The notes under the pieces are model-generated. The model was not told the DNA's origin, searched no databases, and saw only the letters and a program-made list of their open reading frames with translations. From Escherichia phage Skarpretter, in sequence record NC_048112.1: a stretch of 42,042 nucleotides of DNA. One strand, given 5' to 3'. This document shows positions 1 to 42,042 of this stretch, piece after piece. A program made the translations under genes and the position numbers. Every line of letters starts with the position of its first letter. The first letter of the stretch is position 1.

Positions 1-16
1 TAGCAAAAAGTGCTAT
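1..16 (-). promoter_or_regulatory. upstream half of the conserved promoter element (palindrome ATAGCAC-N4-TGCTA), truncated by window edge
   Basis: rc reads atagcactttttgcta, identical to the copy at 36884..36899; TATAGT half would lie beyond window start. Confidence 0.4.
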
Positions 17-3893: not shown

Positions 3894-3937
3894 GGTGTTA
3901 CCCTTTTGTTTAATCCGGCACCGTTGCCGTGAGTTGA

Positions 3938-3982
3938 ACTATACACTTAAACGTGAATATCTGTTTTAGCAATTTGTGCTAT
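3938..3982 (-). promoter_or_regulatory. conserved promoter element driving SPFH gene
   Basis: Minus strand reads ATAGCACaaatTGCTAAA, 23 nt, TATAGT, tcaACTCAC, ~50 nt before ATG at 3893. Confidence 0.6.
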
Positions 3983-4894: not shown

Positions 4895-4916
4895 AATCAA
4901 CAAAGCCCGTTACTAT
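4888..4916 (+). promoter_or_regulatory. putative sigma70-type promoter for helicase operon
   Basis: TTGCCA-17 nt-TACTAT followed by a CTCAAAC element, ~40 nt upstream of helicase ATG. Confidence 0.35.
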
Positions 4917-4957
4917 TCACTCAAACGTGATTATGAATAAGCAGGAGACAAAACGCA

Positions 4958-9692: not shown

Positions 9693-10079
9693 ATGAAAAC
9701 GTGCAAAAAATGTGGGGAATCAAAGCCGCTCGATCAATTCCATAACGACAAATCAAAGAAAGACGGCAAGCGGGCGAATTGTAAAGCCTGCCAGAATAAG
9801 CAAACGAAAGAGTATCAACACGGGGCGGGTAAGGATGTTGCCAACGCTTGCAAGGCGCGATACATGAAGAAACACGCCAAAAAGCGCCGGGCGCACATCA
9901 TGGTGAATAATGCGATCCGTGACGGCAAATTACAGCGCGGCCCCTGCGAGGTCTGCGGGGAGATCAAGGCGGTTGCCCATCACGACGATTACGATCACCC
10001 GCTGGTGATCCGCTGGCTCTGTGAGCCACATCATAAAGAATGGCATTGCGCCAACGGTGAAGCCCTCAACCCTGATTGA
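9693..10079 (+). CDS. HNH endonuclease-like protein
   Basis: CKKCG...CKAC and CEVCGE...HHDDY...WLCEPHHKEWH consistent with an HNH zinc-binding nuclease. Confidence 0.55.
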   Translation: MKTCKKCGESKPLDQFHNDKSKKDGKRANCKACQNKQTKEYQHGAGKDVANACKARYMKKHAKKRRAHIMVNNAIRDGKLQRGPCEVCGEIKAVAHHDDYDHPLVIRWLCEPHHKEWHCANGEALNPD

Positions 10080-10132: not shown

Positions 10133-10342
10133 ATGCAAATTATCATTTTGATCGCCAACGTGCGAAAAGACAAAGGCAAGAGCCAAAGCGACGTGGCAAC
10201 CGCAACTGGAATTGCGGAGCGCCAGTTAAGCCGATATGAAAACCAACACGAGATCCCGAAACTGCCAACACTGGCAAAAATCGCGGATTACCTGGGATGT
10301 ACGATCGAGGATCTTTACGAGGTCAAACAAGCCGGGGAATAA
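10133..10342 (+). CDS. XRE/Cro-like helix-turn-helix transcriptional regulator
   Basis: 69 aa; SQSDVATATGIAERQLSRYENQ HTH signature; followed by strong terminator. Confidence 0.7.
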   Translation: MQIIILIANVRKDKGKSQSDVATATGIAERQLSRYENQHEIPKLPTLAKIADYLGCTIEDLYEVKQAGE

Positions 10343-10346
10343 ATAA

Positions 10347-10372
10347 GGGGCCATAGCGGCCCCTTTTTTTTT
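10347..10372 (+). terminator. rho-independent terminator, likely bidirectional
   Basis: GGGGCC-atagc-GGCCCC followed by T9; lies between convergent HTH gene and tailspike gene. Confidence 0.8.
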
Positions 10373-12620
10373 ATGCCGGAGTAATGAAGGTGATCGGCTT
10401 GGTCGCGGCTAACTGAGTGCCCGCCGCCGTCGCCGTAGCGATAGGGTGAGCAATGTTAATGCGTACCGGGGAGGACGGCACGCCCTGCGAGGTGTTGTAA
10501 GGCCCACGCGTGATCCACGTCTGCAACGCTGCACCGCCAGCGCCAGCGCCCGGAATGGTGATACGGGTTCCCGGCGTTAACGGCTTGCCATACATCCACG
10601 GCGCGGAGGACTTGTTACCATCCCAATCTACGTTGCAATCAACGTAAGTGTTTCCCACGGTGGTTGCCTTGATCTGGAAATCAGCCGTTGCCGGAATGTA
10701 CGCCCCGGACACGGTGACACGGAAAAATTTTCCGTCCGCACGCTGCACCAGATCCCCGCGCTGAAACTCGCGCCCGGTAGGGAATGCGTTGCTGTCAAAG
10801 TTCGGGTAGTTCATTTCGTCCGGCGTCGGCATGGTGTAAATCTGGTTTACGTTCCCCACCTTCACACCGATCGAGCCGTCGATCCCGTTATACTGGCGCA
10901 TATCCGCGTACACGTTGGAGCCGATCGACGTGATGTTTGTATAGCTGCACTGGCTCCAGCCCTGATCCGCAAAGCCGTTTTCGTCGTAGAAATTCACGTT
11001 AATCATACGCAATACGGACTTACCACGGATAAAGCGCCCGTTTGACGTGGTGCCGCCTGCGGAGTCGTTGCCGATACAATCAAAAACGGTGCCCGTAATG
11101 TTGGACATGTTCAGCATTGACGCCACGCCAAAGAGCGTTAACTTGTAACAGCGGATATTTTCAAGGGTGTACGTGTTCGGCGTCACCATGATCCCGTTAC
11201 TGTCGGCGTTTGCTGCCACACCACAATAAACGCGGCCCTGTTTGGTGCTTACGTTGCGTACAACCATATCAAAGCACGGGTTAGACGGTGCGCCAGCGGT
11301 TACGCCCCACTCCAGCATAACAATACGCACATCATGAGGATCGGCGGTGGTTACTACTGGCTCGCCGTATACGCCGTCAATGGTGATCCGTTTGCAGCCG
11401 TAGGCGATCACGGTGGACATGGTAAGCCCGGTGCCGTTCGAAACGTTCTGGTTTGGGTCGCCGTGGATGTTCTCGATCGTACTGTCGCGGGTCACTTCCA
11501 GGTGTAGGATCTGGCGCACGCGGTTTGCAAAGACGTTGCGGATCGCAAAGTTTTTGGCGTATTGGCTGTCTGGAATATCCCAGCCGTAAGGCCCGGCCCC
11601 GGCGATACCGATCCCGATACCCCAGTTTGAGTTGGCGATCGGGGTTTGCCCGTTCACGTTCTCCATGTAGATCCCGTCAATGACGCAACCGTAATCAAAG
11701 TTGGCGTTAACTACGTTAAACTCCAGGCAATCGCCGCCCACATTGTAGAATGAAAGGTTACGGAATACGCCGCGCTGTACGTCGCCGCTACCCTGCATTA
11801 AGAAGCCGAACAAAGTATTTCGAAACTCGGTGTCGGTCAGTTCGAAAGAGTCGTTTGTAGTCGGTGAAGCCTGCGCCACGATCGAGCCTGCTTTAGACGC
11901 GGTTACTTCGCCGTCGATCAGGCAATCCCTGATCCGGTTGTTGCCACCCCAAAGCATGATGCGCAATTTATTGATGATCGCACCTTCTAACAGGATGTTG
12001 GTGATCCGCCAGTCTGCGGTGCCCTGCCAGGTGCCACCCTGGATCGTGATGCCGTCCGCCGTTACGGTGCTTTCAAGTGTGCCCGTCCAGCCATACGCAT
12101 AAACGATCTTTTTGTTGGCTTTGGCGTAATCAAACATGGCTTGAATTGCCGCGCTCGTGGTCGTGTACTCGTCGCGGCTGGTGAAATCCCACGGCGTAAC
12201 GAAACCTTGCAGGCGGGTTTTTAACGTGCCCTCGGTGGTGCCAACGTATTCCCAGCCCGTAGGGGATTGGATCACCTGCCACATTTGCGCCGCGTCGTAC
12301 TCTAACAGGTTGTCAAAGTAGTATTGCAACACGTTCTGGCGGTTATATACCGCCATGCTGCACCCGGTTTGAGTGACAAAGCGGCCTACGCTGCCCTGAT
12401 AAACAGGATAACCGGAGGCATTGATCTTGATCGGCTGCGGGATCGGGGTGAGGGTTAGATCCTCATTCTCCCAATACACTTGCACCTGGTTTGCTGGATC
12501 AACCGGGTTAGTGTCGGGCTTGCCGATATAAATATCACCGTCCGCAATAGCCGCGAATTTATCCACCTGGATAAACGGCGAGGACGGCATACGCACGGCG
12601 GCGTAAACGGTATCAACCAT
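10371..12620 (-). CDS. tailspike protein with P22-type head-binding N-terminal domain and beta-helix receptor-binding domain
   Basis: 749 aa; N-terminal ~110 aa aligns by eye with P22 gp9 head-binding domain (IYIGKPDTNPVDPANQVQVYWENED...SMAVYN vs P22 [25 protein letters not shown]...SMAIYD); remainder Gly/Asn/Thr-rich. Confidence 0.85.
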   Translation of the reverse strand: MVDTVYAAVRMPSSPFIQVDKFAAIADGDIYIGKPDTNPVDPANQVQVYWENEDLTLTPIPQPIKINASGYPVYQGSVGRFVTQTGCSMAVYNRQNVLQYYFDNLLEYDAAQMWQVIQSPTGWEYVGTTEGTLKTRLQGFVTPWDFTSRDEYTTTSAAIQAMFDYAKANKKIVYAYGWTGTLESTVTADGITIQGGTWQGTADWRITNILLEGAIINKLRIMLWGGNNRIRDCLIDGEVTASKAGSIVAQASPTTNDSFELTDTEFRNTLFGFLMQGSGDVQRGVFRNLSFYNVGGDCLEFNVVNANFDYGCVIDGIYMENVNGQTPIANSNWGIGIGIAGAGPYGWDIPDSQYAKNFAIRNVFANRVRQILHLEVTRDSTIENIHGDPNQNVSNGTGLTMSTVIAYGCKRITIDGVYGEPVVTTADPHDVRIVMLEWGVTAGAPSNPCFDMVVRNVSTKQGRVYCGVAANADSNGIMVTPNTYTLENIRCYKLTLFGVASMLNMSNITGTVFDCIGNDSAGGTTSNGRFIRGKSVLRMINVNFYDENGFADQGWSQCSYTNITSIGSNVYADMRQYNGIDGSIGVKVGNVNQIYTMPTPDEMNYPNFDSNAFPTGREFQRGDLVQRADGKFFRVTVSGAYIPATADFQIKATTVGNTYVDCNVDWDGNKSSAPWMYGKPLTPGTRITIPGAGAGGAALQTWITRGPYNTSQGVPSSPVRINIAHPIATATAAGTQLAATKPITFITPA

Positions 12621-18476: not shown

Positions 18477-19940
18477 TTAACTTACGCGGGCACGCGCCAG
18501 CGCGATATTACACGGAGCCGCACCAACGGCACGAATACGGAAACCGATCCCGTAACGCACGCGGCCTACCTTCTGGATCAGTGAGCGTTTAAGCCACTGT
18601 TGCGGGCGGTTGTACTCGATCACCTTCTCGCCGTAATACGTCGCGCCGTCCTCGGTGGCGGCAATCCAAATGGTTTGCGCCTGGTTCAGCCCTGGCATGG
18701 TGCCGGGGTCGATCTCAAAGTCGTTTAGCATGGCGTCGCTGAGGTCTGCGATCTTCGTCCAGCACACGATCTCTTGCGGCTCGTCGTACTGGTTGGAGGT
18801 GGTCGGGTCGAGTACGCCCGCGATCGGGCTTTTACGATCGCCGCATGTGATTACGTTCCCCTCGTTGCAGAAGTCGATCGCCGTATATAGGCCATTCTGC
18901 AAACCGGATTTAAGCACGCTCCAAACGCGTTTGCCGTTCGCCGTGCTGGCGGTGTGATCGTAAACCAAAACACGATCAGGCAGGTGTACCAAAAGGAGTT
19001 GGTGATCTTCATAGCGTAGCTGCTCCAGTACAGCCGTTTTTAATTCGTCCTGCGTATAGCCGGAAAGGATGCGCCGGATCGTGTTACTGGCGAGATCCTC
19101 CCAGGATGCCCCGCCCGGATTCAGGTAGCCGATCGTGACAATTCCGCACGCCGGGGTGGTGATCATGGCGAAACTGTCCGCGTACTGGCAAACGGTGTGC
19201 GGGCCAAAGGTGCCAGCCTGCGTTGTGTAGGACTGCTGCACCTGGTAGATCTGGTCAGCGTCGCCAGTGAGCGCCCAATATTCAACCGTAGCGGTGCCAA
19301 AGGCGATCACGTAGTCGCGCCACGCCCTGATCGCTACAATGCCGTCCGGCATGGATTCAGCGCGGTATGCGGGGGCTACGGCGTCCGGCCTGCACTCGTT
19401 GAAAAGGTCGCTAACCCAAAACAGATCGCTATCTTTGGAGCAAAAAATATAACGTTGGCGGAGGTGGCAAACGTCCACAATATCGCCCCAATCAAAGCTG
19501 GTCGGATCTGCTGCCCCGCCGTTGTAGTCGTCGCTACTTTTCCAGTTCTGGAAAGCCTCGCGCCCGCCTGCGTATTTGTACATAACAAGCTGGTTTTCAT
19601 ACACAACCGCCTGGCTTGTGGTGCTGTGCGCCATAGGAGTACGATCCAGCCCGGCTACGCTGTCCACCACGTCGCGCCCCAGGTAAAGACTATTCCCCAT
19701 CACGCGATAAGGCTCATTCTTAACCGTATTCCAATGCACGCCACGCGATAAGCCGTCTACGTCCTGCTTTTGCGTCAGGCCGGGGAAGGTTCGCAGATAA
19801 CCGGACGATCCCCGAAAGCCAAACATGACCGCCAGGAGGTTTACGGGTAGGCGCTCAATATAAACGCCGTCTTTCGTGTCTACGCCGTCACCAAAGAGCA
19901 ACGGGAACTGGACATACTGCCCACGTTTGCCAACTGCCAT
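18477..19940 (-). CDS. tail hub protein (P22 gp10-like)
   Basis: 487 aa (P22 gp10 472 aa); position between gp4-like and needle genes. Confidence 0.55.
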   Translation of the reverse strand: MAVGKRGQYVQFPLLFGDGVDTKDGVYIERLPVNLLAVMFGFRGSSGYLRTFPGLTQKQDVDGLSRGVHWNTVKNEPYRVMGNSLYLGRDVVDSVAGLDRTPMAHSTTSQAVVYENQLVMYKYAGGREAFQNWKSSDDYNGGAADPTSFDWGDIVDVCHLRQRYIFCSKDSDLFWVSDLFNECRPDAVAPAYRAESMPDGIVAIRAWRDYVIAFGTATVEYWALTGDADQIYQVQQSYTTQAGTFGPHTVCQYADSFAMITTPACGIVTIGYLNPGGASWEDLASNTIRRILSGYTQDELKTAVLEQLRYEDHQLLLVHLPDRVLVYDHTASTANGKRVWSVLKSGLQNGLYTAIDFCNEGNVITCGDRKSPIAGVLDPTTSNQYDEPQEIVCWTKIADLSDAMLNDFEIDPGTMPGLNQAQTIWIAATEDGATYYGEKVIEYNRPQQWLKRSLIQKVGRVRYGIGFRIRAVGAAPCNIALARARVS

Positions 19941-20392
19941 TATTTATCGCTCCCGTCATAGTAAAAGCGGCCTGCCGGGTTCCAGGTCTTGTTGCCCTCG
20001 CCCGTGGGCATATCATTACGGCGTTTGAGGTCGGTTGGTTCCCAAAGCGCGGTTTTAAGCGCACGCATTGCCCGGCCTGCTCGCGCTGCAATGCCGTTGG
20101 GCACGTCGCGCTGGGCGTCGTCAATGATGCGGATCGCCAACTGATAACCGATCGCCGTTAAGTATTTTTCATCTAACCCGGAGTCGTCCGATCCGTCGAT
20201 CGCGTCGAGGTCAGCCGCAAAAATGTACGGGGTTTCCTTCACATCGTTGTGAAACTCCCGCATGTACAGATCCAGATCTTCCAACGCGTCCTGGATCTGC
20301 TGCGGCGTCGGCGGGCTTAACATGGTGTCGTCGCTAAACCCGGCCTTACGCAACCCGAAATTTACAAAAACGATCTTCTGTAAAGTCGCCAT
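19940..20392 (-). CDS. head-to-tail adaptor (P22 gp4-like)
   Basis: 150 aa; LRKAGFSDD and DMPTGEGN resemble P22 gp4 LRKLGVASD and RMPTGSGN. Confidence 0.6.
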   Translation of the reverse strand: MATLQKIVFVNFGLRKAGFSDDTMLSPPTPQQIQDALEDLDLYMREFHNDVKETPYIFAADLDAIDGSDDSGLDEKYLTAIGYQLAIRIIDDAQRDVPNGIAARAGRAMRALKTALWEPTDLKRRNDMPTGEGNKTWNPAGRFYYDGSDK

Positions 20393-20394
20393 GA

Positions 20395-20703
20395 TTATTT
20401 GCCTTTCTTGGCTGCTGGTTTCTTGGTTTTGGCTGGGGCTTTCTCTGTGGCGTCAGACGGCGCTTTAACAGCCTGGTAATGGGATTGCACCAGCGGGGCC
20501 GCTTCGTGCGATTCTGGCGCGGCTGGCTTAACATCCTGCGGCCTTACGTCGCCCGGTTGGGGTACTTCGGACGGGTGGCGATACCACTCGCCGGATTTGA
20601 GGGCTTTTTCTACGTCCTCGTCGGCAAAAACAGCACTTTTTGCAAAGTATTTATGCCAGTAATGTTTATTCTTACCTTCACGGTAAAGCACGGTATTAGA
20701 CAT
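20395..20703 (-). CDS. hypothetical protein with Pro/Lys-rich C-terminal tail
   Basis: Likely ATG at 20703 with GAGGT SD; C-terminus KAPAKTKKPAAKKGK; sits between coat terminator and gp4-like gene. Confidence 0.45.
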   Translation of the reverse strand: MSNTVLYREGKNKHYWHKYFAKSAVFADEDVEKALKSGEWYRHPSEVPQPGDVRPQDVKPAAPESHEAAPLVQSHYQAVKAPSDATEKAPAKTKKPAAKKGK

Positions 20704-20718
20704 GGTAATAACCTCATA

Positions 20719-20741
20719 TAAAAAAAGGGGCCGTAGCCCCT
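20719..20741 (-). terminator. rho-independent terminator after coat gene
   Basis: Minus strand GGGGC-tacg-GCCCC followed by T7. Confidence 0.75.
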
Positions 20742-20776
20742 TTATACACGAAACAATCAGGTTAATCACCTATGCC

Positions 20777-22051
20777 TTACGGCGTCGGCGCAACCTGGTT
20801 TGCGATCTCGATGCCTACATATTCCGGCACCAGGACGGACACGCCATACAGTGTAGTAAAGCGGGCCGTGGTTTTCCCGGTGATGTGGTTGAACGCGTAG
20901 GACATGATCAGGGTTGCGCCCTGCTTAGTCGTCGCGGTCATAACCTGCGGGCCTTGTCCGGTTGGGAATGCGAGTTTCCCGTACATCACCTCTACGGAGC
21001 CGTCAGCCCACAAAATGTTGGTGTTAGCTGCCACGGTGTTGATAACGGTCAGCGCTGCGCCGGAGGCCGGGTTAGCGGTTACGTTAGCATACGGGCGGCT
21101 CGGCTCGTCGGCGTTGTCCAGCGGGAGGATCTTCGGCGCAATGGTAATGGTGTTGCCACTAACTGCCAGCACGCGGAAAACCTGCTCTTTGTCGGTCGTC
21201 GCTTTGCCGATCAGGTGTACCATATCCACACCCTCGATCGTGAATGCGTCGCCCTGCTGCAAGCCGTGGGAGGCGGAAACCGTGATCGTGCCGTAGCGGT
21301 TATCTACTGGCATGTTGCTTACCGCGTCCATTGCTTCGACTTTGTGAGCCGGAGCCGCCGCCAGGGTGATCGCCGCTGCGGAGCCAGTAGGCACGCGCCC
21401 GGTTTGATCCACTTTGTAGGAGTCGAACGACGCCACGTTAGGGATCTGCGCACGTTCCCACGCGGCCTGGTTGATGCCGGAGGAGTAAGAGCGGCCCGCC
21501 AGTTCACCCGCCAGATCTTTATAATCGTAGGCGTTGAAGAAAGCGCGTTTAGTGATGCCCATCGGCACGCCGATCATGGTGAAATCGGCGTCAAGCTCTG
21601 CCGCACCATCCCAAAGATCTTTGCCTTTGGTGCCAGTGGAGTTATCGCCAACGGCTTTAACGTTGGTTGCCCAGCGGGAAGCCTCTACAACGGTGTCATA
21701 GTCGATCTTCGCTGCGAGGCGCTGGCCTGCTGCGCGGCCTGCGTCGGTTTTGTGCTCCGGGTCGCGCATTTCGCGGGCGTCCAGGGTGTACAGGATGTTT
21801 TGCGGCTCTTTAAAAGTCGCTGGCACCTGGCGCTGGACAAGCTCGGTTTGCGCTGCGGAGGTCAGATCCAGACCTTCCACAATATCCATGTGGTAGTGCT
21901 GCGGACGCCATACGGTATCGCCTGCACGCTGCATGGCGGTGTCGTCAGGTCGGAATTTCTTTGCCTGGCGTGATACTACGCAAGCGGCCTCAAAGCCTTC
22001 TACGTAGTTCTCGAACATAATTTCGAGGTCTTTCGTTAACTGGTTAGCCAT
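20777..22051 (-). CDS. major capsid (coat) protein, P22 gp5-like
   Basis: 424 aa; ITVSASHGLQQGDAFTIEGV (P22 [20 protein letters not shown]), PYANV, NILWADGSVEVM (P22 NVFWADDAIRIV). Confidence 0.85.
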   Translation of the reverse strand: MANQLTKDLEIMFENYVEGFEAACVVSRQAKKFRPDDTAMQRAGDTVWRPQHYHMDIVEGLDLTSAAQTELVQRQVPATFKEPQNILYTLDAREMRDPEHKTDAGRAAGQRLAAKIDYDTVVEASRWATNVKAVGDNSTGTKGKDLWDGAAELDADFTMIGVPMGITKRAFFNAYDYKDLAGELAGRSYSSGINQAAWERAQIPNVASFDSYKVDQTGRVPTGSAAAITLAAAPAHKVEAMDAVSNMPVDNRYGTITVSASHGLQQGDAFTIEGVDMVHLIGKATTDKEQVFRVLAVSGNTITIAPKILPLDNADEPSRPYANVTANPASGAALTVINTVAANTNILWADGSVEVMYGKLAFPTGQGPQVMTATTKQGATLIMSYAFNHITGKTTARFTTLYGVSVLVPEYVGIEIANQVAPTP

Positions 22052-24100: not shown

Positions 24101-24146
24101 GTTCTGATCTCCTCGGTTGGGTTCACGTTGTCGTGAATGTGAGGAG

Positions 24147-24191
24147 ACTATAGCCCCATCCGTGGGGCTTGTCTTTAGCAAAAAGTGCTAT
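24147..24191 (-). promoter_or_regulatory. conserved promoter element driving the 24100 unit
   Basis: Minus strand ATAGCACttttTGCTAAA, 23 nt, TATAGT, ctcCTCACAttcac. Confidence 0.6.
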
Positions 24192-26428
24192 TCCTGGTTT
24201 GCGCTCTGCGCCGCTGCATTCAGGAGGCGATCCGCGTTGCGCTCGTCGGCCTGCTGCTGGTCGCGGGTAAACTGCTGCATAAGCTGGATCACTTCCACCA
24301 GCTGATCGTGCTTAATGCCTGCGGTTTTGGCGATGGTTTCCAGCGTCTGCGCGTCGGTCAAGCGTCCATCTTTCGCGGCTTTCTCTGCGGTCACTTGCAG
24401 GTTAAGCGCTTTGATGTTCAGATCCTTATCTTTCAACGCCAGATCGGTTTGCTTGTTCTGCGCGTTCATCAGATCAGCCGTGGCTTTCTTGTCCTCTGCC
24501 ATTGCTGCAACCATCATTGGATCAGGCTGGTTCTGTTTCGCTTCCTGCGCCTGCTGCAACATCGCTTTTTCTTCGTCCGTTTCCGGCTGAATAATGCCGT
24601 TCATAATCATCTGATTACGGCTATATTCGCGGAAGTCCTGCAACCCTTCGCCGTCCATGTTCATCAGGATCAGGCTCATGACGATCGCCGCGTTAGGATC
24701 TTGCGGGTTCATGGATTGTAACAGGTTGGTGAGGTTGCGCACCGTCGCCTGGCGGCGGGTTTGGCTGCTCTCGCCTACGCTGCTCTCAACTTCGTATTTG
24801 CCTTTGGTCAGGTCGTTTAGCGCGATCTGCTGTTTGGTCTTACGGTCGATTACTGCGCCCTGTAACAACACCATATCGTCGCTGCCGTCCTCATTCACGA
24901 CGCGGACATAATCGACGGAGCCGTAAACCTCGCGGGCCATTTCGAGCCATACTTTGCCAGCGTGGCGCAAGGATTTTGCGAGGTTGTCCATATACAGCGC
25001 CCCTTGTCCGTCCATGCGGGCAAAGATTGCCTCCACGGTTTCGGTTGCAAGGTTCGACGGCATAGATTCAACCTGGCTTGCGCCTACGATCTGTTGAATG
25101 GTTCCGCCCGTGTACTGGAGGATCGCGGCAAGGTTCGCGTTTAGCGGCGCTGAGGGGGTATAACCCAGCACGCCACCCGGCGCAATGATATTGCCTTGAT
25201 CGTCGCGCAAGCTCTCAACCGGAAGGTAAGCCGGGCGCTCCTTGTTACGGTTGCCCCACGCGTTAGCCAGCGGGCCGGGCACCATGTTTACATCAAGGAT
25301 CGGGATATTGTCGCCGCCTGCCTGGGTGGCGTTGTCCGCCAGCATGGAAACGATCAGGTTTTCCAGGCGCTGCGCGTCGGTTGCCAGCGTGGCGTGCCCT
25401 GCGATCCTTTCCTGGTTGTCAACGAATGAGCGGCGAGCGTATACCGGGATCAGCGGAATGTAACACCCTGGGATGCGCTCCATTGGCTCCAGCCATTCGC
25501 CACCACTGAGGACGCCGCAATAGATACGAGGTTTTTTTACTTTGCGCTCTTTGCCCTTTTTAAACCCGGCGTCGCGTAACTCGTCCTCGATCTTGGCGAT
25601 CTGATCTTCCTCATAAACCGCCGTTTCTTGCGTCATGGGGTTTTGATAGCTGATCACGGTGACTTCCTCGATCCGCTTCTCATAGTAGCGGGCAAGGTAT
25701 ACCGCGTCCGGCGTACACCAATCAAATTGCTTGCCAGTGTCCAGCATTTCGAGGCTTTCCGGGGCCATAGCCGTTGGGTATTGCTCCTCGTATGCGTCCG
25801 GGTCAATGCTGAAAAGCTCCGTTGCCCACATAGCATCGCTGCGATCGTACTGCTTTGAGTTCTGATCAAAGAATACGCACGACGCCGGATCGTATACCGG
25901 GTGGAAAGTAATATGCCGCGCTTCGCTGTCCGGGTTGTACTCGTCCTCTAAACAGGTGTCCATGCGGAAGCAACCAAACCCGCCCGTTACCGCGTCGTCA
26001 AAGGCGTTATCGATCGCCTCGCACCCGCTGGACTCGTTGAAGTCGGCGCGAAATTTGCCGTTCAGCTTGTCGGCTAACTCCTCGGACGCTTCGCCGTCTT
26101 TCGGGCGATAGGTGACGTTTACGCGGTTTAGGCGGTAATCGGTGATAATGCGATCGACTTCACGCGCCAGCTTGTTAAGCTCAAAGCGCGGGTATTTTTT
26201 AAACCGATCGTCGTCCATGTTCCAGCCGGAGTTGGTCGATCCTTCCCATTGTGCGCCGGGCACGCGGACGAATCGCAACACCTCGATCATTTTCTTACGG
26301 CTGGTTTCCTCGTTCGCAAACTGCGTTGAGATACGTTTACGGGCGCGGGCGTGTTCCTTGTCCTCGCTCTTGCTCATTTTACGCGGGGTTTTCCCCTCGT
26401 TGGTTTCCAGGTCGTTACGGTCTGCCAT
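24188..26428 (-). CDS. portal protein (P22 gp1-like)
   Basis: ~746 aa; YRPKDGEASEELADKLNGKFRAD (P22 [22 protein letters not shown]), FFDQNSKQYDRSDAMW (P22 IWDSNSKLMDKSDARH); likely ATG at 26428 with AGGGGAG SD. Confidence 0.85.
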   Translation of the reverse strand: MADRNDLETNEGKTPRKMSKSEDKEHARARKRISTQFANEETSRKKMIEVLRFVRVPGAQWEGSTNSGWNMDDDRFKKYPRFELNKLAREVDRIITDYRLNRVNVTYRPKDGEASEELADKLNGKFRADFNESSGCEAIDNAFDDAVTGGFGCFRMDTCLEDEYNPDSEARHITFHPVYDPASCVFFDQNSKQYDRSDAMWATELFSIDPDAYEEQYPTAMAPESLEMLDTGKQFDWCTPDAVYLARYYEKRIEEVTVISYQNPMTQETAVYEEDQIAKIEDELRDAGFKKGKERKVKKPRIYCGVLSGGEWLEPMERIPGCYIPLIPVYARRSFVDNQERIAGHATLATDAQRLENLIVSMLADNATQAGGDNIPILDVNMVPGPLANAWGNRNKERPAYLPVESLRDDQGNIIAPGGVLGYTPSAPLNANLAAILQYTGGTIQQIVGASQVESMPSNLATETVEAIFARMDGQGALYMDNLAKSLRHAGKVWLEMAREVYGSVDYVRVVNEDGSDDMVLLQGAVIDRKTKQQIALNDLTKGKYEVESSVGESSQTRRQATVRNLTNLLQSMNPQDPNAAIVMSLILMNMDGEGLQDFREYSRNQMIMNGIIQPETDEEKAMLQQAQEAKQNQPDPMMVAAMAEDKKATADLMNAQNKQTDLALKDKDLNIKALNLQVTAEKAAKDGRLTDAQTLETIAKTAGIKHDQLVEVIQLMQQFTRDQQQADERNADRLLNAAAQSANQE

Positions 26429-26478
26429 TCTCGGCGCTCCCCTTGTTGATTCTGGCAAAGTCTAACATGATGCGAAAA

Positions 26479-26522
26479 ATAGCACGAATTGCTAAAGCAT
26501 TTCACGTTAAAGTGATTATAGT
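26479..26522 (+). promoter_or_regulatory. conserved promoter element driving the 3-gene cassette
   Basis: ATAGCACgaatTGCTAAA, 22 nt, TATAGT, aatCTCACAttcac, ~35 nt before ATG at 26557. Confidence 0.6.
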
Positions 26523-26556
26523 AATCTCACATTCACGAACAAATGAGGGCTTTAAA

Positions 26557-26763
26557 ATGTTAACTTTCGTAATCGTTGTTGCGGCGCTGTCCTGGATCGT
26601 CTGCTCATGGCTCGTTGGCGCGGCTGCTGGGCGGTACTTCGCCAGCCCGGTTTGCGCGTGGGTCTACCTGGGCGTTTCGCTGGTGCTGTCGCCGCTGGTG
26701 GGCCTGCTGGTGCTGTTTGGCTCTCACCTGCTGGACTACATCGAATCGCGGGGCCGCGCATGA
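26557..26763 (+). CDS. small membrane protein (two predicted TM helices)
   Basis: 68 aa, two hydrophobic helices; GAGGG SD; ATGA overlap with next ORF. Confidence 0.55.
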   Translation: MLTFVIVVAALSWIVCSWLVGAAAGRYFASPVCAWVYLGVSLVLSPLVGLLVLFGSHLLDYIESRGRA

Positions 26764-27124: not shown

Positions 27125-27152
27125 AACAGGGGCCATTGCGGCCCCTTTTGCG
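27125..27152 (+). terminator. rho-independent terminator (bidirectional position)
   Basis: GGGGCC-attgc-GGCCCC followed by TTTTG; between convergent cassette and terL 3' end. Confidence 0.7.
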
Positions 27153-31142: not shown

Positions 31143-32117
31143 TTATTCGCTCGGCTGGCTGTGCTCAATGTATCGGCGCTCGCTGGCGATCAGGTCGTCA
31201 GTAACCCAAATCATGCCGCGATGGTATGCGGCTGTAAACGCCTCGGATAGCTCGTAACCGTTCTCAACGGCTTTCGTGATTACGTCCAGGTCTGCGCGTC
31301 GCTGGGCTTGATTCTCGCGCACCTTTGCCATGAGTTGATAAGCGATATGGATCGGGTTTGGCCCGGTTGGTGCTGGCGGTAGCGTCACGGTGCGCACTGG
31401 CCCGCCGTCATACTCGATCGCGCTCTCGATCTCCGCCTCAACTGTGGTTGTGCCCTCGATCGGGATCTGGCGCTCGTCTGCCTGCACGCCACCAGCGCCC
31501 GCCAGCTTGCGGAGGTCTTGCGCCAGTTCAGCGCCCCATGCCTCCCACTCGTCCGGCAATCCGTTTGCGCTGCCCTCGATATGCACCGCCAGCTTATACG
31601 CTGCCTCGCGCATGTTGCTTACCTGCTCGCGCCAGGTGTCGTTGTCGGTCTGGATCTGCGTGCGGATCTCCTCAACCTCGGCGCGTAGCTCTTTGATCAC
31701 GGTGTCACGCTGCCCGCAACGAATGCGCATAGCTTCGCGGTCGTCGTTGGCCTGGTTAAGCGATTTCAGGTAGCGTTGCGCCTCGGCGTGCTCCTGGGTG
31801 ATCTGCTTGTTGGCTGATCGCAATTGGGCTTTGGTGTACTCGTGCGCTTTCTCCTCGGCCTTAATGCACGCTTGCGCGTCCTGCATACGGTCGTACACGT
31901 CGCGGCGGTCTGCTAACCAATCTTGCTTGTTGTGGAGGTTGATCAGGTTAAACACCGTGAAGCCCACAACGGAGGAAAACACCAGCGCAAAGAATACCAG
32001 CCAGCCAGCCGCGCCAGTGAGCCAGGTTAAGCCGCCCGCCAGCATACAGACCAGGCACAACACAAACGCCGCGCCACCAGCGATCGCAGACCATTTCAAG
32101 CCGTTATTATTAAACAT
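31143..32117 (-). CDS. membrane protein with N-terminal TM helices and long coiled-coil domain
   Basis: 324 aa; two hydrophobic segments then Gln/Glu/Arg-rich heptad-like region; AGGAG SD; preceded by hairpin terminator and TATAAT box. Confidence 0.6.
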   Translation of the reverse strand: MFNNNGLKWSAIAGGAAFVLCLVCMLAGGLTWLTGAAGWLVFFALVFSSVVGFTVFNLINLHNKQDWLADRRDVYDRMQDAQACIKAEEKAHEYTKAQLRSANKQITQEHAEAQRYLKSLNQANDDREAMRIRCGQRDTVIKELRAEVEEIRTQIQTDNDTWREQVSNMREAAYKLAVHIEGSANGLPDEWEAWGAELAQDLRKLAGAGGVQADERQIPIEGTTTVEAEIESAIEYDGGPVRTVTLPPAPTGPNPIHIAYQLMAKVRENQAQRRADLDVITKAVENGYELSEAFTAAYHRGMIWVTDDLIASERRYIEHSQPSE

Positions 32118-32204
32118 GTTAATTATTCTCCTGCTTATTATATCGAAAGCTGGCAGACGTAAAGCCAGCTATACACTTTAGCGTCATGCTGTACATGATC
32201 GCCG

Positions 32205-32238
32205 TACATAACAATAAACCGGGCATCAAAACCCGGTT
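32205..32238 (-). terminator. rho-independent terminator
   Basis: Minus strand AACCGGG-8 nt loop-CCCGGTT followed by TTATTGTTATG. Confidence 0.5.
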
Positions 32239-32314
32239 AGGCAAAAAGTGCTATATGTTCATCAGCAACGCGATCCACAAAAACCAAAGAAGCATTAACG
32301 TTGATCCGTCCATC

Positions 32315-33093: not shown

Positions 33094-33401
33094 ACTTTAT
33101 TCACTCCTCAATGAATGTACAACATCGCACAAAAGTTGTTTTGTCTTTTCGTGCTGTCGGCCTTTACCGCTTCCGGCAATCGCTAACATCGCCAACGCAC
33201 AATAAGCCCGCAAGGGCGTTTGGGTGCGGTGGTGTGCGTAGCGAGTGGCGAGCGTAGCGAGTTAACACGATAGTGTTTTATATATATAAGGGCGCACTCT
33301 TGTTGTTGTGCATATTAAACCCTTGATTTATATAGCCTTTTCACCACTCCCGCACAATAATAAGTTTTGTGCGGGTTATGTTATTGAAATACAAAGAAAA
33401 A

Positions 33402-35074: not shown

Positions 35075-35118
35075 ATAGCACGAATTGCTAAAACAGCTTT
35101 ATGAATACTATGTATAGT
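35075..35118 (+). promoter_or_regulatory. conserved promoter element driving plus-strand island
   Basis: ATAGCACgaatTGCTAAA, 22 nt, TATAGT, tatCTCACAccaac, 32 nt before ATG at 35151. Confidence 0.6.
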
Positions 35119-35150
35119 TATCTCACACCAACGAATTGAGGCAAAACAAA

Positions 35151-35696
35151 ATGACTACAGCAATCACAATGAAAGTAACCCTCGGCGCACTGGCTGGCCT
35201 GATCTCCTACTGCGAAAACAAAAAAATGAAAATGGCAAAGATTCAGGCGCACGTTTCTAACATCGCCTTTATCGAACTGAATCACCCGGCCTTTGCTTAC
35301 GCTAAAGACCTGCTCAACGAGGCCGCTGATAAGCGCCGCACCTTCTCCGGCGTTGCTAACTGCATCCAGGCGGCGATTACTGAGATCAACCGCGTGATCG
35401 ACGCTGCGCACGCTGAGGCCCTGGAAATGGACGCGGTAGTAAATGATTGCGTAACCCGTTTCAAATACTGCATCGATCACTATCAGGCTGAATGCAACGT
35501 TAAAAACGAGATCCACGGCCTCGTGATTGCGAAAGGCTACGCGCTCGGCTGGACGGCTCGCATGATGGTTAAAATGGTGGCTAACGTGTGGCGTTTGGGT
35601 GAGGCGGCGGCAAAGGCACACCGCGCACATACTGCGGCAATGCTGGCGGCGGCTCCGGCTAATGGCTCAATCCCTGATTATGATCTCCCGTTTTAA
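35151..35696 (+). CDS. hypothetical protein with SSB-like C-terminal tip (..SIPDYDLPF)
   Basis: ~181 aa from ATG at 35151 (GAGG SD); C-terminus IPDYDLPF. Confidence 0.6.
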   Translation: MTTAITMKVTLGALAGLISYCENKKMKMAKIQAHVSNIAFIELNHPAFAYAKDLLNEAADKRRTFSGVANCIQAAITEINRVIDAAHAEALEMDAVVNDCVTRFKYCIDHYQAECNVKNEIHGLVIAKGYALGWTARMMVKMVANVWRLGEAAAKAHRAHTAAMLAAAPANGSIPDYDLPF

Positions 35697-35710: not shown

Positions 35711-35754
35711 ATAGCACGAATTGCTAAACGCCGCGTCTAAATACTATGTATAGT
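35711..35754 (+). promoter_or_regulatory. conserved promoter element
   Basis: ATAGCACgaatTGCTAAA, 22 nt, TATAGT, tatCTCACAccaac, before ATG 35788. Confidence 0.6.
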
Positions 35755-35787
35755 TATCTCACACCAACAAACAACGGAGTAAACGAA

Positions 35788-36102
35788 ATGAAAACTTTAA
35801 CAATCGCTCAACATGCTTCACTGGCTCGTGTATGCACCGCGTTACGCCTGGCAATCAGTAAAGGTAACATCACCGTAAGCAACGCGATCCGCCTGCTGTC
35901 CGGTGACGCAACAACCGCCGCTGGCGAGTTGGGCTTAACCCTCACCCGCCGCCAGGGGTCAACAACTCATGACCTGGACACGGTGGAGGTTGTGGAGTAC
36001 GCCTTAATGGCGCTGGCGTCCGGCTTTAAGCGTGACGTGCTGGAAGCGCTGAAAGAGTTACGCGCCGATAGTCACGCCGCTATTGACCGCGCCAAAATCT
36101 AA
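35788..36102 (+). CDS. hypothetical protein
   Basis: ~105 aa from ATG at 35788 (GGAG SD). Confidence 0.55.
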   Translation: MKTLTIAQHASLARVCTALRLAISKGNITVSNAIRLLSGDATTAAGELGLTLTRRQGSTTHDLDTVEVVEYALMALASGFKRDVLEALKELRADSHAAIDRAKI

Positions 36103-36431: not shown

Positions 36432-36887
36432 ATGAAACCACAAGAGATCAAAAAGGCGGGCATCTTCTCAAAGGATGATATTCACTGCTTCACTGACTGC
36501 GGCTACAACTGCAAGGCAAAGGTAAGGGCTGATCTTGAGGCGCATTACGCGCCAATCGCTGCGGCGCTGGGTAACGGCTGGCGCGTTAACATCTGGCACA
36601 ACGGCGGCTGGCACGCTAACCTGGCGCATGATGAATCACAATTTTACCTGAGCGATCGAGCGGTGCGCGGCGGTATCAGTGCAATGAAGGTGGACGCCGA
36701 TCGGTTTGAGGACAACGTAAACCGCTTTGAGGTGTTCAATTACGAATACCCGGAGGGCACCAGCCAGGTTTGGGTGTACGGTAACGATCCGAAAGACGCG
36801 ATCCGCAACGCCTTTAACGCCGTGTCGGAGCGGGTAGTAGCCTACATGGTGCAACAACAAAAGATCCTGGACGCTTTCCCCGGATAG
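36432..36887 (+). CDS. hypothetical protein
   Basis: 151 aa, Trp/Asn/Gly-rich; stop codon lies inside next promoter palindrome. Confidence 0.55.
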   Translation: MKPQEIKKAGIFSKDDIHCFTDCGYNCKAKVRADLEAHYAPIAAALGNGWRVNIWHNGGWHANLAHDESQFYLSDRAVRGGISAMKVDADRFEDNVNRFEVFNYEYPEGTSQVWVYGNDPKDAIRNAFNAVSERVVAYMVQQQKILDAFPG

Positions 36888-36927
36888 CACTTTTTGCTAA
36901 ACGCTCCTCGTAAATACTTGGTATAGT
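36884..36927 (+). promoter_or_regulatory. conserved promoter element
   Basis: ATAGCACttttTGCTAAA, 22 nt, TATAGT, tctTTCACAccaac, before ATG 36959. Confidence 0.6.
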
Positions 36928-36958
36928 TCTTTCACACCAACACGAGGAGCGAAACAAA

Positions 36959-37180
36959 ATGGCTAAATCAACAATCCGCGTTACCAACGATAAAGGCTTT
37001 GGCGGTTACTACGGCAACCTCCGCAAGTGGGAAGGTCTGAAACGTAAAGACCTGGCCTGGAAAGACGAGGATTTAACCGGAGAAAGCGCGGCGCACGATC
37101 CCGACTTCTGGATCGACGAGTACACCACGCAAGCGGAAATTGACTACCGCAACCGCGCACACCGCGCAAAGTTTGACTAA
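36959..37180 (+). CDS. hypothetical protein
   Basis: 73 aa, GAGGAG SD. Confidence 0.55.
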   Translation: MAKSTIRVTNDKGFGGYYGNLRKWEGLKRKDLAWKDEDLTGESAAHDPDFWIDEYTTQAEIDYRNRAHRAKFD

Positions 37181-39282: not shown

Positions 39283-39833
39283 TGTGGGGCGCGATCCTGG
39301 CCCTCCTGCGCCGATACTGGAAGCCGATCGCCGTAATCCTCCTCGTGCTGCTGGCGCTGGGGGGATCTTACCTTAAAGGCTCGGCTGATAAGGATCAGGA
39401 ATGGCAAGCGCGATGGACACAACGCGATCTGGACGATTCCACCCAGAAAGGGATCGATAATGTAGCCGCCCGGATAATTGAACAAGGCCGGGCCATTGAA
39501 CGCCAGGAGGCGATCGAGGATGCACAAAAACGGGAAGCCGCCGCGCTGGCTGCTGCTGATCGGTTGCGTGGTACTGTTGACGGCCTGCAACAACTCGCCA
39601 ACAAATACGCGGCCCAACTGGACGCCCAGCGGGCAACCACTGATCTTGCCGCTGCCGTCGCAAGCAAAACAAAAGCCCAGGGGGCCGGAGTGCTCGCCGT
39701 CATGCTCGGAAGCGTTGCAAAGGAAGCTGAATATTATGCTAAACGATCTGACGAAAGCTACGACGCCGGGCTAACCTGCGAGCGGCTTTACGAGTCGGTG
39801 AGGGTGACGCAAGAAAAAGTCAAGGGGCCATAA
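39282..39833 (+). CDS. Rz: i-spanin (Rz-like)
   Basis: 183 aa; N-terminal TM helix, periplasmic coiled-coil; TAATG coupling with R. Confidence 0.7.
   Translation: MWGAILALLRRYWKPIAVILLVLLALGGSYLKGSADKDQEWQARWTQRDLDDSTQKGIDNVAARIIEQGRAIERQEAIEDAQKREAAALAAADRLRGTVDGLQQLANKYAAQLDAQRATTDLAAAVASKTKAQGAGVLAVMLGSVAKEAEYYAKRSDESYDAGLTCERLYESVRVTQEKVKGP
39520..39774 (+). CDS. Rz1: o-spanin (Rz1-like) lipoprotein embedded in +1 frame of Rz
   Basis: ~84 aa from internal ATG; signal peptide with lipobox (LIGC / LTAC), Pro-rich mature region. Confidence 0.55.
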   Translation: MHKNGKPPRWLLLIGCVVLLTACNNSPTNTRPNWTPSGQPLILPLPSQAKQKPRGPECSPSCSEALQRKLNIMLNDLTKATTPG

Positions 39834-39848
39834 CGGCCCCTTTTTTTA
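39822..39848 (+). terminator. rho-independent terminator (bidirectional position)
   Basis: GGGGCC-ataac-GGCCCC followed by T7; between Rz and convergent Ig-like gene. Confidence 0.8.
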
Positions 39849-40674: not shown

Positions 40675-41007
40675 TTACTGCGTTATCTTGCCAGCCTTAA
40701 CCCATTTAACGCGCCTGTTAGCCACTGAGGCAAGCGGACGCTCTAAACGTGCGGCAATCTCTTTGGTTGTTACGCCCTCGTTTGCCAACTCGATCAACGC
40801 CTGATCCTCCGTGCTTTTCCAGTATTCGAAAGATCGGGCCGCTTTCATGTCGAGGCCCAAATAGCGCCCCCGATTCTGGATCGAGTTGAGCGGACGGCCC
40901 AACTTGTGCGCAAGCTGTTTGGCGGTTAAGCGCTCCTCTTTCGGCAATGCCGCGTTACTGATCAGCGCCTGATCCTCTGCTGCGGTGTACTGTTTCCCGT
41001 TTGGCAT
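40675..41007 (-). CDS. DNA-binding protein with two tandem Myb/SANT-like HTH repeats
   Basis: 110 aa; repeats AEDQALIS...TAKQLAHKLGRPLNSIQNR and TEDQALIEL...TTKEIAARLERPLASVANRR resemble the Myb repeat W-x-EDQ-x-IEL...IA..L...R. Confidence 0.5.
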   Translation of the reverse strand: MPNGKQYTAAEDQALISNAALPKEERLTAKQLAHKLGRPLNSIQNRGRYLGLDMKAARSFEYWKSTEDQALIELANEGVTTKEIAARLERPLASVANRRVKWVKAGKITQ

Positions 41008-41795: not shown

Positions 41796-42000
41796 ATGCA
41801 CCCCGCAAAGCGTCGCGGGCGTTTTCTTCGGCCTGGGCCGCTTCACGTTTCAGGGCGGCAACTGCTGCCGGGCCTGCATGGTACATTTTCAGGCGGTTAC
41901 GGAGACGGCAAGCCAGATCCGCCAGCACATGAGCCTGAGCCAGTAACAGCGGGGAAACGATCTGCGCTTTGTTGCTTTTGGTGATTAGTAAAGTTTGCAT
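41785..42000 (-). CDS. hypothetical protein
   Basis: ~71 aa from ATG at 42000 with GAGGAG SD, directly downstream of promoter element at window edge. Confidence 0.45.
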   Translation of the reverse strand: MQTLLITKSNKAQIVSPLLLAQAHVLADLACRLRNRLKMYHAGPAAVAALKREAAQAEENARDALRGAYGK

Positions 42001-42013
42001 CGTTGTTGCTCCT

Positions 42014-42042
42014 CTTGTTGGTGTGAGGTCACTATACAAAGT
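42014..42042 (-). promoter_or_regulatory. downstream half of conserved promoter element (TATAGT-N3-CTCACACCAAC), truncated by window edge
   Basis: Minus strand reads tatagtgacCTCACAccaac then GAGGAG SD and ATG at 42000. Confidence 0.5.

Follow-up and report, generated by a model that had tools for sequence, protein, structure and literature searches.

Repeated promoters of Escherichia phage Skarpretter carry a marbox in the class II position and are probably activated by the host

How does a virulent phage have its genes transcribed from promoters that lack a −35 element? The question is raised by the genome of Escherichia phage Skarpretter (record NC_048112.1; 42,042 nucleotides, this whole stretch being referred to here as the window), where an element at positions 35,075 to 35,118 of the plus strand consists of a 20-nt box followed by the hexamer TATAGT, an arrangement that recurs elsewhere in the window. 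A previous inspection of the letters (the sequence-only reading) took the element for a conserved promoter in which an inverted repeat, TAGCA-N5-TGCTA, is bound near −42 by a dimeric class II activator serving one phage-specific regulon. At issue are the kind of promoter that the element represents and the identity of the protein that reads it. The box is a marbox, the binding site of the MarA, SoxS and Rob family of host activators, and it stands in forward orientation at the spacing of host class II promoters. We consider it likely, judging from these sequence comparisons, that the copies represent class II promoters of the mar/sox/rob type, used by sigma70 and activated by the host.

A genome-wide search for the core TAGCACNNNNTGCTA, allowing at most one mismatch, returned seven sites (14 strand-counts) against 0.35 expected by chance, and none of 100 shuffled sequences matched this. 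The notion of a conserved promoter element, each copy lying 22–23 nt from TATAGT, is thereby borne out, and all six complete copies of the sequence-only reading are present where it had placed them. TATAGT follows after 22 nt in four of the six and after 23 nt in the other two (24176 and 3967). Beyond it come three bases (four in the 3967 copy), CTCAC or TTCAC, a CA-rich leader, a Shine–Dalgarno (SD) sequence and the start codon, with 75–78 nt between box and ATG in four copies and 89–91 nt in two. As had been proposed, copies stand at the head of the early island, before the SPFH gene and before the cassettes of the structural module. The three central bases of the window copies are GAA (three), TTT (three) or AAA (one), and a perfect 5-bp inverted repeat is kept in all seven.

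The anatomy of the element was derived from 175 non-redundant copies, drawn from 57 sources. What these copies have in common is an asymmetric 20-mer, ATAGCAC-nnW-TTG(C/T)TAAAAc, with information of about 2 bits at ATAGCAC, TTG and TAAA and about 1 bit at the base between TTG and TA (box position 14, the partner of invariant G4: 125 C, 47 T and three A; Y in 98%). The three central bases are A/T-rich (TTT 82, GAA 57, TAA 15, AAA 8). A1, C7, T11 and A17–18 are conserved without symmetric partners, and the supposed palindrome is broken in about one quarter of the copies, position 14 being T in 27%. The asymmetry of the box therefore fits a monomeric reader with two helix-turn-helix (HTH) units, not a dimer. 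One half of the earlier proposal thus survives: the position agrees with that of a class II activator (centre near −41/−42 if TATAGT is the −10), while the dimer palindrome is lost.

Spacing is equally regular. Between TTGnTA and the −10-like hexamer, 151 copies have 22 nt, 13 have 21 nt and 11 have 23 nt; the earlier argument that TTGCTA cannot serve as a −35 at 22–23 nt is upheld, and the hexamer at the −35 position itself matches TTGACA at three or fewer of six bases in 151 of the 175 copies. The −10 is TATAGT, CATAAT or TATTAT, with A2 and T6, a good sigma70 hexamer. G is present at −14 in 72% of copies and the full TGn of an extended −10 in 35%; within the window, four of the six complete copies have neither, 36884 has TGn and 24191 has G at −14 only. 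Across five syntenic promoter pairs of the window and Escherichia phage C130_2 the 20-nt box is 90% identical, the upstream 30 nt 36% and the spacer 51%.

Several other readings of the element were tried and set aside. Likeness of TAGCAC-N3-TTGC to a sigma54 promoter (TGGCAC-N5-TTGC) founders on AG in place of GG, on a spacing that is 2 bp short and on the sigma70 −10 at a fixed distance; a sigma32 reading of CCCCAT, found downstream in T1-like copies, has the wrong distance, and CCCCAT is absent from the window. Read as a T4 MotA box, TTGCTAAA lies 22 nt from the −10 instead of about 12. The extended −10 fails as a sole explanation, TGn being present in just 35% of copies and in a single window copy (36884). 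A search for an alternative −10 within the box or on its other strand found no conserved partner hexamers, and a DNA or RNA hairpin as key feature was dropped, such a hairpin occurring in only one of the six window copies.

The core of the marbox is 5'-GCAnnWWnTGnnAAA-3', a non-palindromic, oriented sequence (PMC12052159). The six complete window copies match it at all 10 specified positions; exact matches number eight in the window against 0.43 expected, and six of the eight are the promoter copies. The classical 20-mer consensus, AYnGCACnnWnnRYYAAAYn, is said to go back to Martin et al. 1999, and the complete window copies depart from it by 0–1 mismatches. Scanning for this consensus (up to two mismatches) together with a −10 at 17–19 nt, with shuffled sequences as control, gave 10 hits in the window where 0.07 were expected, 8 in C130_2 (0.13), 6 in IME_EC2 (0.07), 4 in Kosakonia phage Kc166B (0.07) and 19 in T1 (0.5); phage Sortsne had none (0.13). 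Consensus box, forward orientation, 18–19 bp to the −10 and absence of a −35 are all found together.

Known host boxes were compared directly. The marRAB marbox of E. coli K-12 stands in the genome as GATTTAGCAAAACGTGGCAT, which in forward reading is ATGCCACGTTTTGCTAAATC; it is identical to window boxes at 15 of 20 positions and to a box from the Drexlerviridae (T1-like phages) at 17 of 20, and the host's own micF and mar boxes share just 10 of 20. Sites located in Salmonella by chromatin immunoprecipitation sequencing (ChIP-seq) for SoxS, RamA, Rob or MarA include GCACTATTTGCTAAA, GCATTTTTTGCTAAA, CCACGATTTGCTAAA (mar) and GCATTATTTGCTAAA (yeeY) (PMC10268841), and these are one to two substitutions from the window cores GCACTTTTTGCTAAA and GCACGAATTGCTAAA.

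The geometry of the phage promoters can likewise be set beside that of the host. At class II marbox promoters the forward box overlaps the −35 (PMC12052159). At micF, a class II promoter, the site of RamA binding has its centre at about −41, and helix 3 of MarA reads GCAC, helix 6 reading AAA seven bases away (PMC8811837). Class II promoters of the mar/sox/rob regulon have no recognisable −35, and in the Rob– and SoxS–micF complexes sigma region 4 is displaced from the −35 (PMC10268841). In E. coli K-12 the 20-bp boxes of micF, sodA and nfo end 18 bp before the −10 (TAGAAT, TATAAT and TATCAT; the micF start was taken from the annotated RNA 5' end). Between box and TATAGT the window copies have 18 bp (four) or 19 bp (two), and the centre of the box falls 40.5 nt before the predicted start. 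Wherever a −10 is present the box faces forward, with AAA at the end nearer the −10 and GCAC at the far end, as at micF, and the hexamer at the −35 position of the copy at 35,075, AAAACA, is the same as that of micF.

A scan of one genome per bacterial species with ATAGCACNNNTTGCTAAAAC yielded 86 matches, about two dozen of them in Enterobacteriaceae. Of 20 enterobacterial matches inspected, 17 mapped to a single orthologous locus (yeeY 3' end or yeeZ–plaP spacer), with proteins 82–87% identical to E. coli PlaP, YeeY and YeeZ. This locus is the orthologue of the Salmonella SoxS ChIP site listed as '(yeeY)' (PMC10268841); a coding artefact was dropped as explanation of the matches because they form one orthologous locus that corresponds to a SoxS ChIP site. 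In Citrobacter, Kluyvera, Enterobacter and others the locus contains the exact 20-mer ATAGCACTATTTGCTAAAAC, and the E. coli K-12 counterpart at the yeeY 3' end is ATCGCACTATTTGCTAAAAT (L218:6376-6395). The host genomes thus carry a conserved marbox upstream of plaP, inside or just after yeeY/yeeZ, and at every specified position it agrees with the phage 20-mer in Citrobacter, Kluyvera, Enterobacter, Pseudocitrobacter and Scandinavium.

Which protein, then, reads the box? Homologues of MarA or of the Rob N-terminal domain were absent from six-frame open reading frames of at least 30 amino acids from the window, T1, C130_2, Sortsne and Kc166B (phmmer --max; all E >4). The two regulators put forward by the sequence-only reading, an HTH_3 protein (10133–10342) and a Myb-like tandem-HTH protein (40675–41007), do not follow the element: each has a homologue in Sortsne, with no marbox promoters, and none in T1, with 19. 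No small DNA-binding protein common to the window and T1 was found, nor, among the phages compared, any phage gene that tracks the element, repressor genes included. The identified carriers all infect Enterobacteriaceae, bacteria having MarA, SoxS, Rob and RamA; relatives of the window infect E. coli, Salmonella, Kosakonia and Klebsiella, and marA and rob of E. coli K-12 were retrieved. In T1 the boxes head early clusters of small genes at both genome ends, as well as the helicase, dam and lysis units. The early clusters speak against a phage-made activator, which would not yet be present when they are transcribed. Given the lack of a phage homologue, the failure of both candidates to follow the element, the early T1 genes and the enterobacterial hosts, a host MarA-family protein would be the most economical reader.

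The tandem-HTH protein (minus strand, 110 amino acids) was characterized further. It contains two repeated HTH units (…EDQALI…TxKE(I/L)AxxLxRPLxS(I/V)xNR…, twice) with a disordered linker, matches phrog_323 ('transcriptional regulator, D5-like') and, weakly, Sigma70_r4_2 and HTH_23; just five homologues were found among 5.8 billion sequences. In its structural model a flexible linker joins two HTH units of three helices each (pLDDT 82, pTM 0.44). Compared with the PDB, the model had no match at E ≤0.001 and neither MarA nor Rob in the top 50; the best weak matches were Myb-like or bipartite DNA binders.

If the host reads the box, the marbox, centred near −41 in forward orientation and ending 18–19 bp before TATAGT, would stand in for the −35. 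One monomer of a MarA-family activator (Rob, MarA or SoxS; RamA in Klebsiella and Salmonella) would bind it, one HTH reading GCAC and the other AAA seven bases downstream, and would contact sigma70 region 4 and the C-terminal domain of the alpha subunit, recruiting host RNA polymerase. Transcription is predicted to start at the A of CTCA, 7 nt after the −10, and to yield short CA-rich leaders ending in an SD sequence. A single host-read type of promoter would in this way serve early genes, several small cassettes and the head/tail module, and phage-specific operators in some spacers and leaders (TTCAC-N6-GTGAA) would probably add negative control encoded by the phage. Binding by MarA, SoxS or Rob and dependence of phage transcription on them are thus predictions; if they hold, this phage, and the T1-like phages with the element, probably rely on these proteins for much of their transcription. 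Rob would be the natural first guess as reader. It is constitutive, is the marbox binder of highest affinity, and is induced by bile salts or decanoate as well as by dipyridyl. Until dipyridyl induction it is largely aggregated and inactive (PMC10268841).

Some observations weigh against activation by the host. T1-like phages grow well in unstressed laboratory cells. In such cells MarA and SoxS are scarce and Rob is largely inactive (PMC10268841). Many copies could fire without an activator because of the frequency of TGn (35%) and of G at −14 (72%), and many Drexlerviridae copies might be partly activator-independent. A3 and T11 are near-invariant, a tighter constraint than that of the host consensus, and could mean that the site is optimal or that something else reads it. 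A few copies in T1 have no −10 and lie directly before start codons or inside genes, others are antisense (18850 and 15086 of the minus strand, in the late region), and the box may have uses beyond promoter activation. Lastly, the marbox arrangement is not obligatory, because Sortsne, isolated on E. coli K-12, infects that host with canonical promoters.

One rival, proposed earlier, is an activator made by the phage, either a dimer on TAGCA-N5-TGCTA or a bipartite monomer such as the 40675–41007 protein, the likeness to the marbox being convergent. We regard this as unlikely. It would account for the perfect inverted repeat of all seven window copies and for conservation of A3 and T11 beyond the host consensus, and a bipartite site of some 20 bp could be within reach of a 110-residue protein whose two HTH units are flexibly linked. 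However, the symmetry is lost in relatives, where 27% of copies have T at position 14 and the flanks, too, lack symmetry; both candidate proteins occur in Sortsne, with no such promoters, and are missing from T1, with 19; the model of the tandem-HTH protein finds neither MarA nor Rob among its top 50 PDB matches; the window and T1 share no small DNA-binding protein that we could find; and the box precedes early T1 genes. Moreover, the element agrees with host class II promoters in sequence, in orientation and in the 18-bp spacing.

Two further possibilities derive from options raised for the same repeat in phage TLS (below). Host RNA polymerase might read the promoters with no activator, an unusual upstream, UP-like element making up for the missing −35. 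TTGnTA does resemble a −35 hexamer, extended −10 features are frequent (TGn in 35%, G at −14 in 72%), and T1 thrives in unstressed cells. Class II MarA targets, too, often keep activator-independent activity (PMC12052159). Yet TTGnTA lies 22 nt from the −10, beyond the reach of sigma region 4, the box is not A/T-rich in the manner of UP elements, its most conserved block being ATAGCAC, and four of the six complete window copies lack both TGn and G at −14; the point-by-point match to the marbox would be left unexplained, and we hold this possibility to be decidedly unlikely. That the boxes are instead negative elements, stoperator-like or repressor operators, strikes us as highly improbable. 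Their co-orientation with transcription would suit that role, as would the few T1 copies directly before start codons or inside genes without a −10, and MarA and SoxS can repress where the box overlaps core promoter elements (PMC12052159); but 86% of copies stand at one exact spacing from a −10 that has no −35, the signature of activation, and no repressor gene co-occurs with them. Activation by a host MarA-family protein remains the reading that we prefer.

The distribution of the element extends well beyond the window. By its PHROG matches the window carries a P22-like virion module (portal 24188–26458, Hc3 18477–19940, major head protein 20777–22051, ejection proteins, and a colanic-acid-degrading tailspike, 10371–12620) and a replication module of helicase, RecE, Erf and SSB. 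The closest phages are C130_2 (Hungariovirus, syntenic), Sortsne, Lumpael, IME_EC2 and Kc166B; a near-identity search of phage records returned no match for the structural region. The window is thus P22-like and syntenic with C130_2, not a T1-like siphovirus: only its replication and recombination proteins resemble those of T1 (28–47% identity), and Sortsne has them too. C130_2 carries the element at syntenic positions. Scanning IMG/VR for ATAGCACNNNTTGCTAAA gave more than 119 loci, among them many contigs of about 50 kb with two to five copies in the same architecture; these contigs are Drexlerviridae, and T1 itself has about 25 copies of the box. The earlier suggestion of one phage-specific regulon is therefore not supported, since the element is common to Drexlerviridae (T1, TLS), Hungariovirus, Murrayvirus, Kc166B and the mar/sox/rob promoters of the host.

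The repeat has been seen before. Re-annotation of phage TLS described a 21-nt direct repeat, aaATAGCACnnnTTGnTAAAA, in 21 copies that are co-oriented with transcription and lie about 76 nt before start codons (German et al. 2024, PMC11447400). The repeat falls into AAA, TTT and GAA subgroups and is also present in T1, Rtp and Rogue1; the TLS genome has only three canonical promoters, and the authors left the function of the repeat open, naming a stoperator, an enhancer site or an UP element (PMC11447400). By its sequence, the window element is the TLS/T1 21-nt repeat. A literature search for the literal repeat sequence matched that paper alone (PMC11447400), and the searchable literature held nothing relevant on the marbox in phages, on MarA with Drexlerviridae or on transcript mapping in Drexlerviridae. 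The kind of promoter and the repeat itself are therefore known already; identification of the repeat as a marbox, and the dependence on MarA, SoxS, Rob and RamA that this implies, were not found in the searchable literature.

Sortsne offers a natural contrast. At its syntenic post-portal promoter (about 31900–31990, minus strand; the counterpart of window 24140–24191) it has a canonical TTTACA-17-TATTCT preceded by ATATCACTTTCGTTAAAA, which resembles a decayed marbox with G changed to T in GCAC and a 1-nt deletion. This suggests that the Sortsne lineage replaced host-activated promoters by constitutive ones.

In Drexlerviridae copies, GC-rich dyads with compensatory changes lie between marbox and +1 (loci L009, L029, L058, L074, L083, L088 and L098; T1). 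Some are within the spacer (GCCCGGCGAAAGTCGGGC|ATAAT) and others bracket the −10 (GGGGTT gcgatatagt AACCCC). The mean minimum free energy of this 36-nt region is −9.8 kcal/mol and the mean z −2.45, with z < −2 in 60% of copies. In the window a hairpin, GCCCCACGGATGGGGC, is present only in the spacer of the 24191 copy (24153–24168). Shielding of the 3' end of upstream mRNA and assistance in promoter melting are possible roles for the dyads.

The features of the window are collected in Table 1, which includes two weaker promoters that had been overlooked. The halves at the window edges, noticed earlier, belong to a single promoter that the contig end interrupts. On a circular genome, joining of the ends would leave 16–17 nt of spacer missing at the junction; the contig probably broke inside this repeated promoter, and the genome is probably nearly complete. 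Relatives have genomes of 41–42 kb; the terminal repeats of C130_2, 284 bp long, lie elsewhere in its map. The site at 2198 is possibly a chance match. The site at 20630 points antisense into the 5' part of the 20395–20703 gene, toward a bidirectional hairpin at 20727–20742, and could be the promoter of an antisense RNA or a product of chance. The window shows no excess of canonical sigma70 −35/−10 matches over shuffled sequence (8 against 10.7; 11 against 8.2).

Table 1. Positions of marbox promoters and other features of the window (CDS, coding sequence; promoter assignments and +1 positions are predictions)
Feature	Position	Strand	Box or motif	Spacer (nt)	−10	Predicted +1	CDS or context
Core sites, at most one mismatch	1-15(-), 3967-3981(-), 24176-24190(-), 26480-26494(+), 35076-35090(+), 35712-35726(+), 36885-36899(+)		TAGCACNNNNTGCTA				
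Promoter in question	35075-35125	+	35075-35094 ATAGCACGAATTGCTAAAAC	18	TATAGT 35113-35118	A 35125	CDS 35151-35696
Class II marbox promoter	35711-35761	+	35711-35730 ATAGCACGAATTGCTAAACG, 0 mismatches to 20-mer consensus		35749-35754	35761	CDS 35788-36102
Class II marbox promoter	36884-36934	+	36884-36903 ATAGCACTTTTTGCTAAACG, 0 mismatches		36922-36927	36934	CDS 36959-37180
Class II marbox promoter	26479-26529	+	26479-26498		26517-26522	26529	CDS 26557-26763; small cassette between portal and terminase genes
Class II marbox promoter	24140-24191	-	24191-24172	19	24152-24147	24140	CDS 24100-23645; at portal gene 3' end, heads head/tail module
Class II marbox promoter	3931-3982	-	3982-3963 ATAGCACAAATTGCTAAAAC	19	3943-3938		CDS 3893-3042; SPFH/lipoprotein-like gene and operon behind
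Cut marbox, upstream 16 nt	1-16	-	ATAGCACTTTTTGCTA				truncated by window start; terminator 42-25 precedes on - strand
Downstream half of cut promoter	42000-42036	-			TATAGT 42036-42031		CTCACACCAAC leader, SD, ATG at 42000; CDS 42000-41785
Weaker marbox promoter	33107-33157	-	33157-33138 ACAGCACGAAAAGACAAAAC, 2 mismatches	18	TACATT		CDS 33093-32878
Weaker marbox promoter	32204-32254	-	32254-32235 ATAGCACTTTTTGCCTAACC, 1 mismatch	18	TATTGT		upstream of CDS 32117-31143
Candidate antisense marbox promoter	20630-20679	+	20630-20649 ACAGCACTTTTTGCAAAGTA, 2 mismatches	17	TATTCT		inside - strand gene 20395-20703
Marbox-like site, weak −10	2148-2198	-	2198-2179		TATGCT		inside Dam methylase gene
Canonical promoter, for contrast	4888-4930	+	TTGCCA, no marbox	17	TACTAT		helicase/recombination operon
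TTCAC-N6-GTGAA	4916-4930		TTCACTCAAACGTGA				overlaps start region of canonical helicase promoter
TTCAC-N6-GTGAA	7366-7380						upstream of recE
TTCAC-N6-GTGAA	24122-24136		TTCACGACAACGTGA, 24137-24123				leader of 24191 promoter
TTCAC-N6-GTGAA	26501-26515		TTCACGTTAAAGTGA				spacer of 26479 promoter
TCAC-N6-GTGA	9995-10008, 20239-20252						inside genes
Imperfect TTCAC-N6-GTGAA	3942-3957, 26532-26546						3982 promoter spacer; 26479 promoter leader
9-mer	9472(+), 13862(+), 17870(+), 39357(+), 23160(-)		CTGGGGGGA				inside genes
Bidirectional terminator hairpins	10345-10365, 27128-27146, 39822-39842		AAGGGGCC-N3-5-GGCCCCTT				

A second motif accompanies some of these promoters. TCAC-N6-GTGA has six perfect sites in the window (12 strand-counts, with 1.3 expected) and is absent from C130_2, Kc166B and T1. 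The CTCACA(TT/CC) region comprises start site and leader, and in two copies it runs into TTCAC-N6-GTGAA. TTCAC-N6-GTGAA probably serves as operator for a repressor made by the phage, for instance the conserved XRE/HTH_3 protein (10133–10342), which more plausibly reads this motif than the marbox. Sortsne has a related motif, ATCACGAAAGCGTGAT, over core promoters, and IME_EC2 a spacer motif of its own, TTATCAAATGTTGT; all three look like phage-specific operators laid over a common host-read promoter.

Apart from promoters, the 9-mer CTGGGGGGA is strongly over-represented inside genes of the podophages, on both strands, with 5–14 copies against fewer than one expected (Sortsne 14, Kc166B 10, C130_2 6; T1 has none). 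Runs of six G in general are about five-fold depleted (8 against 42 in the window). The 9-mer is possibly a Chi-like site or one related to modification or restriction. The three terminator hairpins are near-identical, have T-runs on both strands and sit where convergent transcription units meet.

What would follow if the host does read these promoters? It is quite possible, although we put it forward tentatively, that two virulent lineages – the whole of the Drexlerviridae, T1 included, and P22-like podophages comprising Hungariovirus, Murrayvirus, Kc166B and the window – have wired most of their promoters to MarA, SoxS, Rob or RamA. Phage development would then be coupled to the antibiotic, oxidative-stress and bile-sensing state of the host, and mutants in marA, soxS and rob (ramA) would support the phages poorly. 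Phage genomes replicating in their hundreds, each with 10–25 consensus marboxes, could titrate the activators off the efflux and porin genes that set intrinsic antibiotic resistance, and the spacer operators (TTCAC-N6-GTGAA; TTATCAAATGTTGT in IME_EC2) would add temporal control over the shared host-read promoter. Infection by a large, much-used group of phages, with candidates for therapy of Klebsiella and E. coli among them, would be tied to the mar/sox/rob/ram regulon, which controls efflux, porins and clinical multidrug resistance; resistant states that overexpress MarA or RamA might favour such phages, and loss of the regulators might protect cells. Transcription in T1-like phages has been unclear, and the class II marbox reading gives a concrete model that can be tested with standard strains and proteins. 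As compact, near-consensus class II marbox promoters, the phage boxes could also serve as sensitive reporters.

How do these promoters compare with systems already described? T4 middle promoters carry a MotA box, (a/t)(a/t)TGCTT(t/c)A, at −30, 11–13 bp from the −10, and work with AsiA. They share with the window a TGCT-containing box in place of the −35 and dependence on sigma70; they differ in that TTGCTA of the window stands 22–23 bp from the −10, and no homologues of MotA or AsiA were seen. Lambda cI at PRM, Mu Mor at Pm and Mu C at the late promoters act where there is no −35, the activator being centred near −42 and contacting RNA polymerase. There, as here, the activator site lies over or abuts the −35 position; but the sites of lambda cI, Mor and C are symmetric and bound by phage-encoded dimers, whereas the window box is asymmetric and matches that of a monomeric host activator. 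The TLS repeat agrees with the window element in consensus, in orientation with transcription, in the distance of about 76 nt to start codons and in the AAA, TTT and GAA subgroups. It differs in its carrier, a T1-like siphovirus in place of a podophage with a P22-like virion module, and its describers linked it neither to a −10 at fixed distance nor to the marbox (PMC11447400).

The closest likeness is to the class II promoters of the host (micF, sodA, nfo and fumC; lpxC, lpxL and rfaY), which have the same asymmetric, forward 20-bp marbox over the −35 position, the same 18–19 bp to a sigma70 −10, no −35 and a centre at about −41; the micF box, ACAGCACTGAATGTCAAAAC, has its AAAAC end in common with the phage box. 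In contrast to these, the phage promoters reside on a virulent genome, in 7–11 copies (at least 19 in T1), and their boxes are much nearer the consensus than most host sites. Whereas the host boxes make up a stress regulon, those of the phage drive most of its transcription units.

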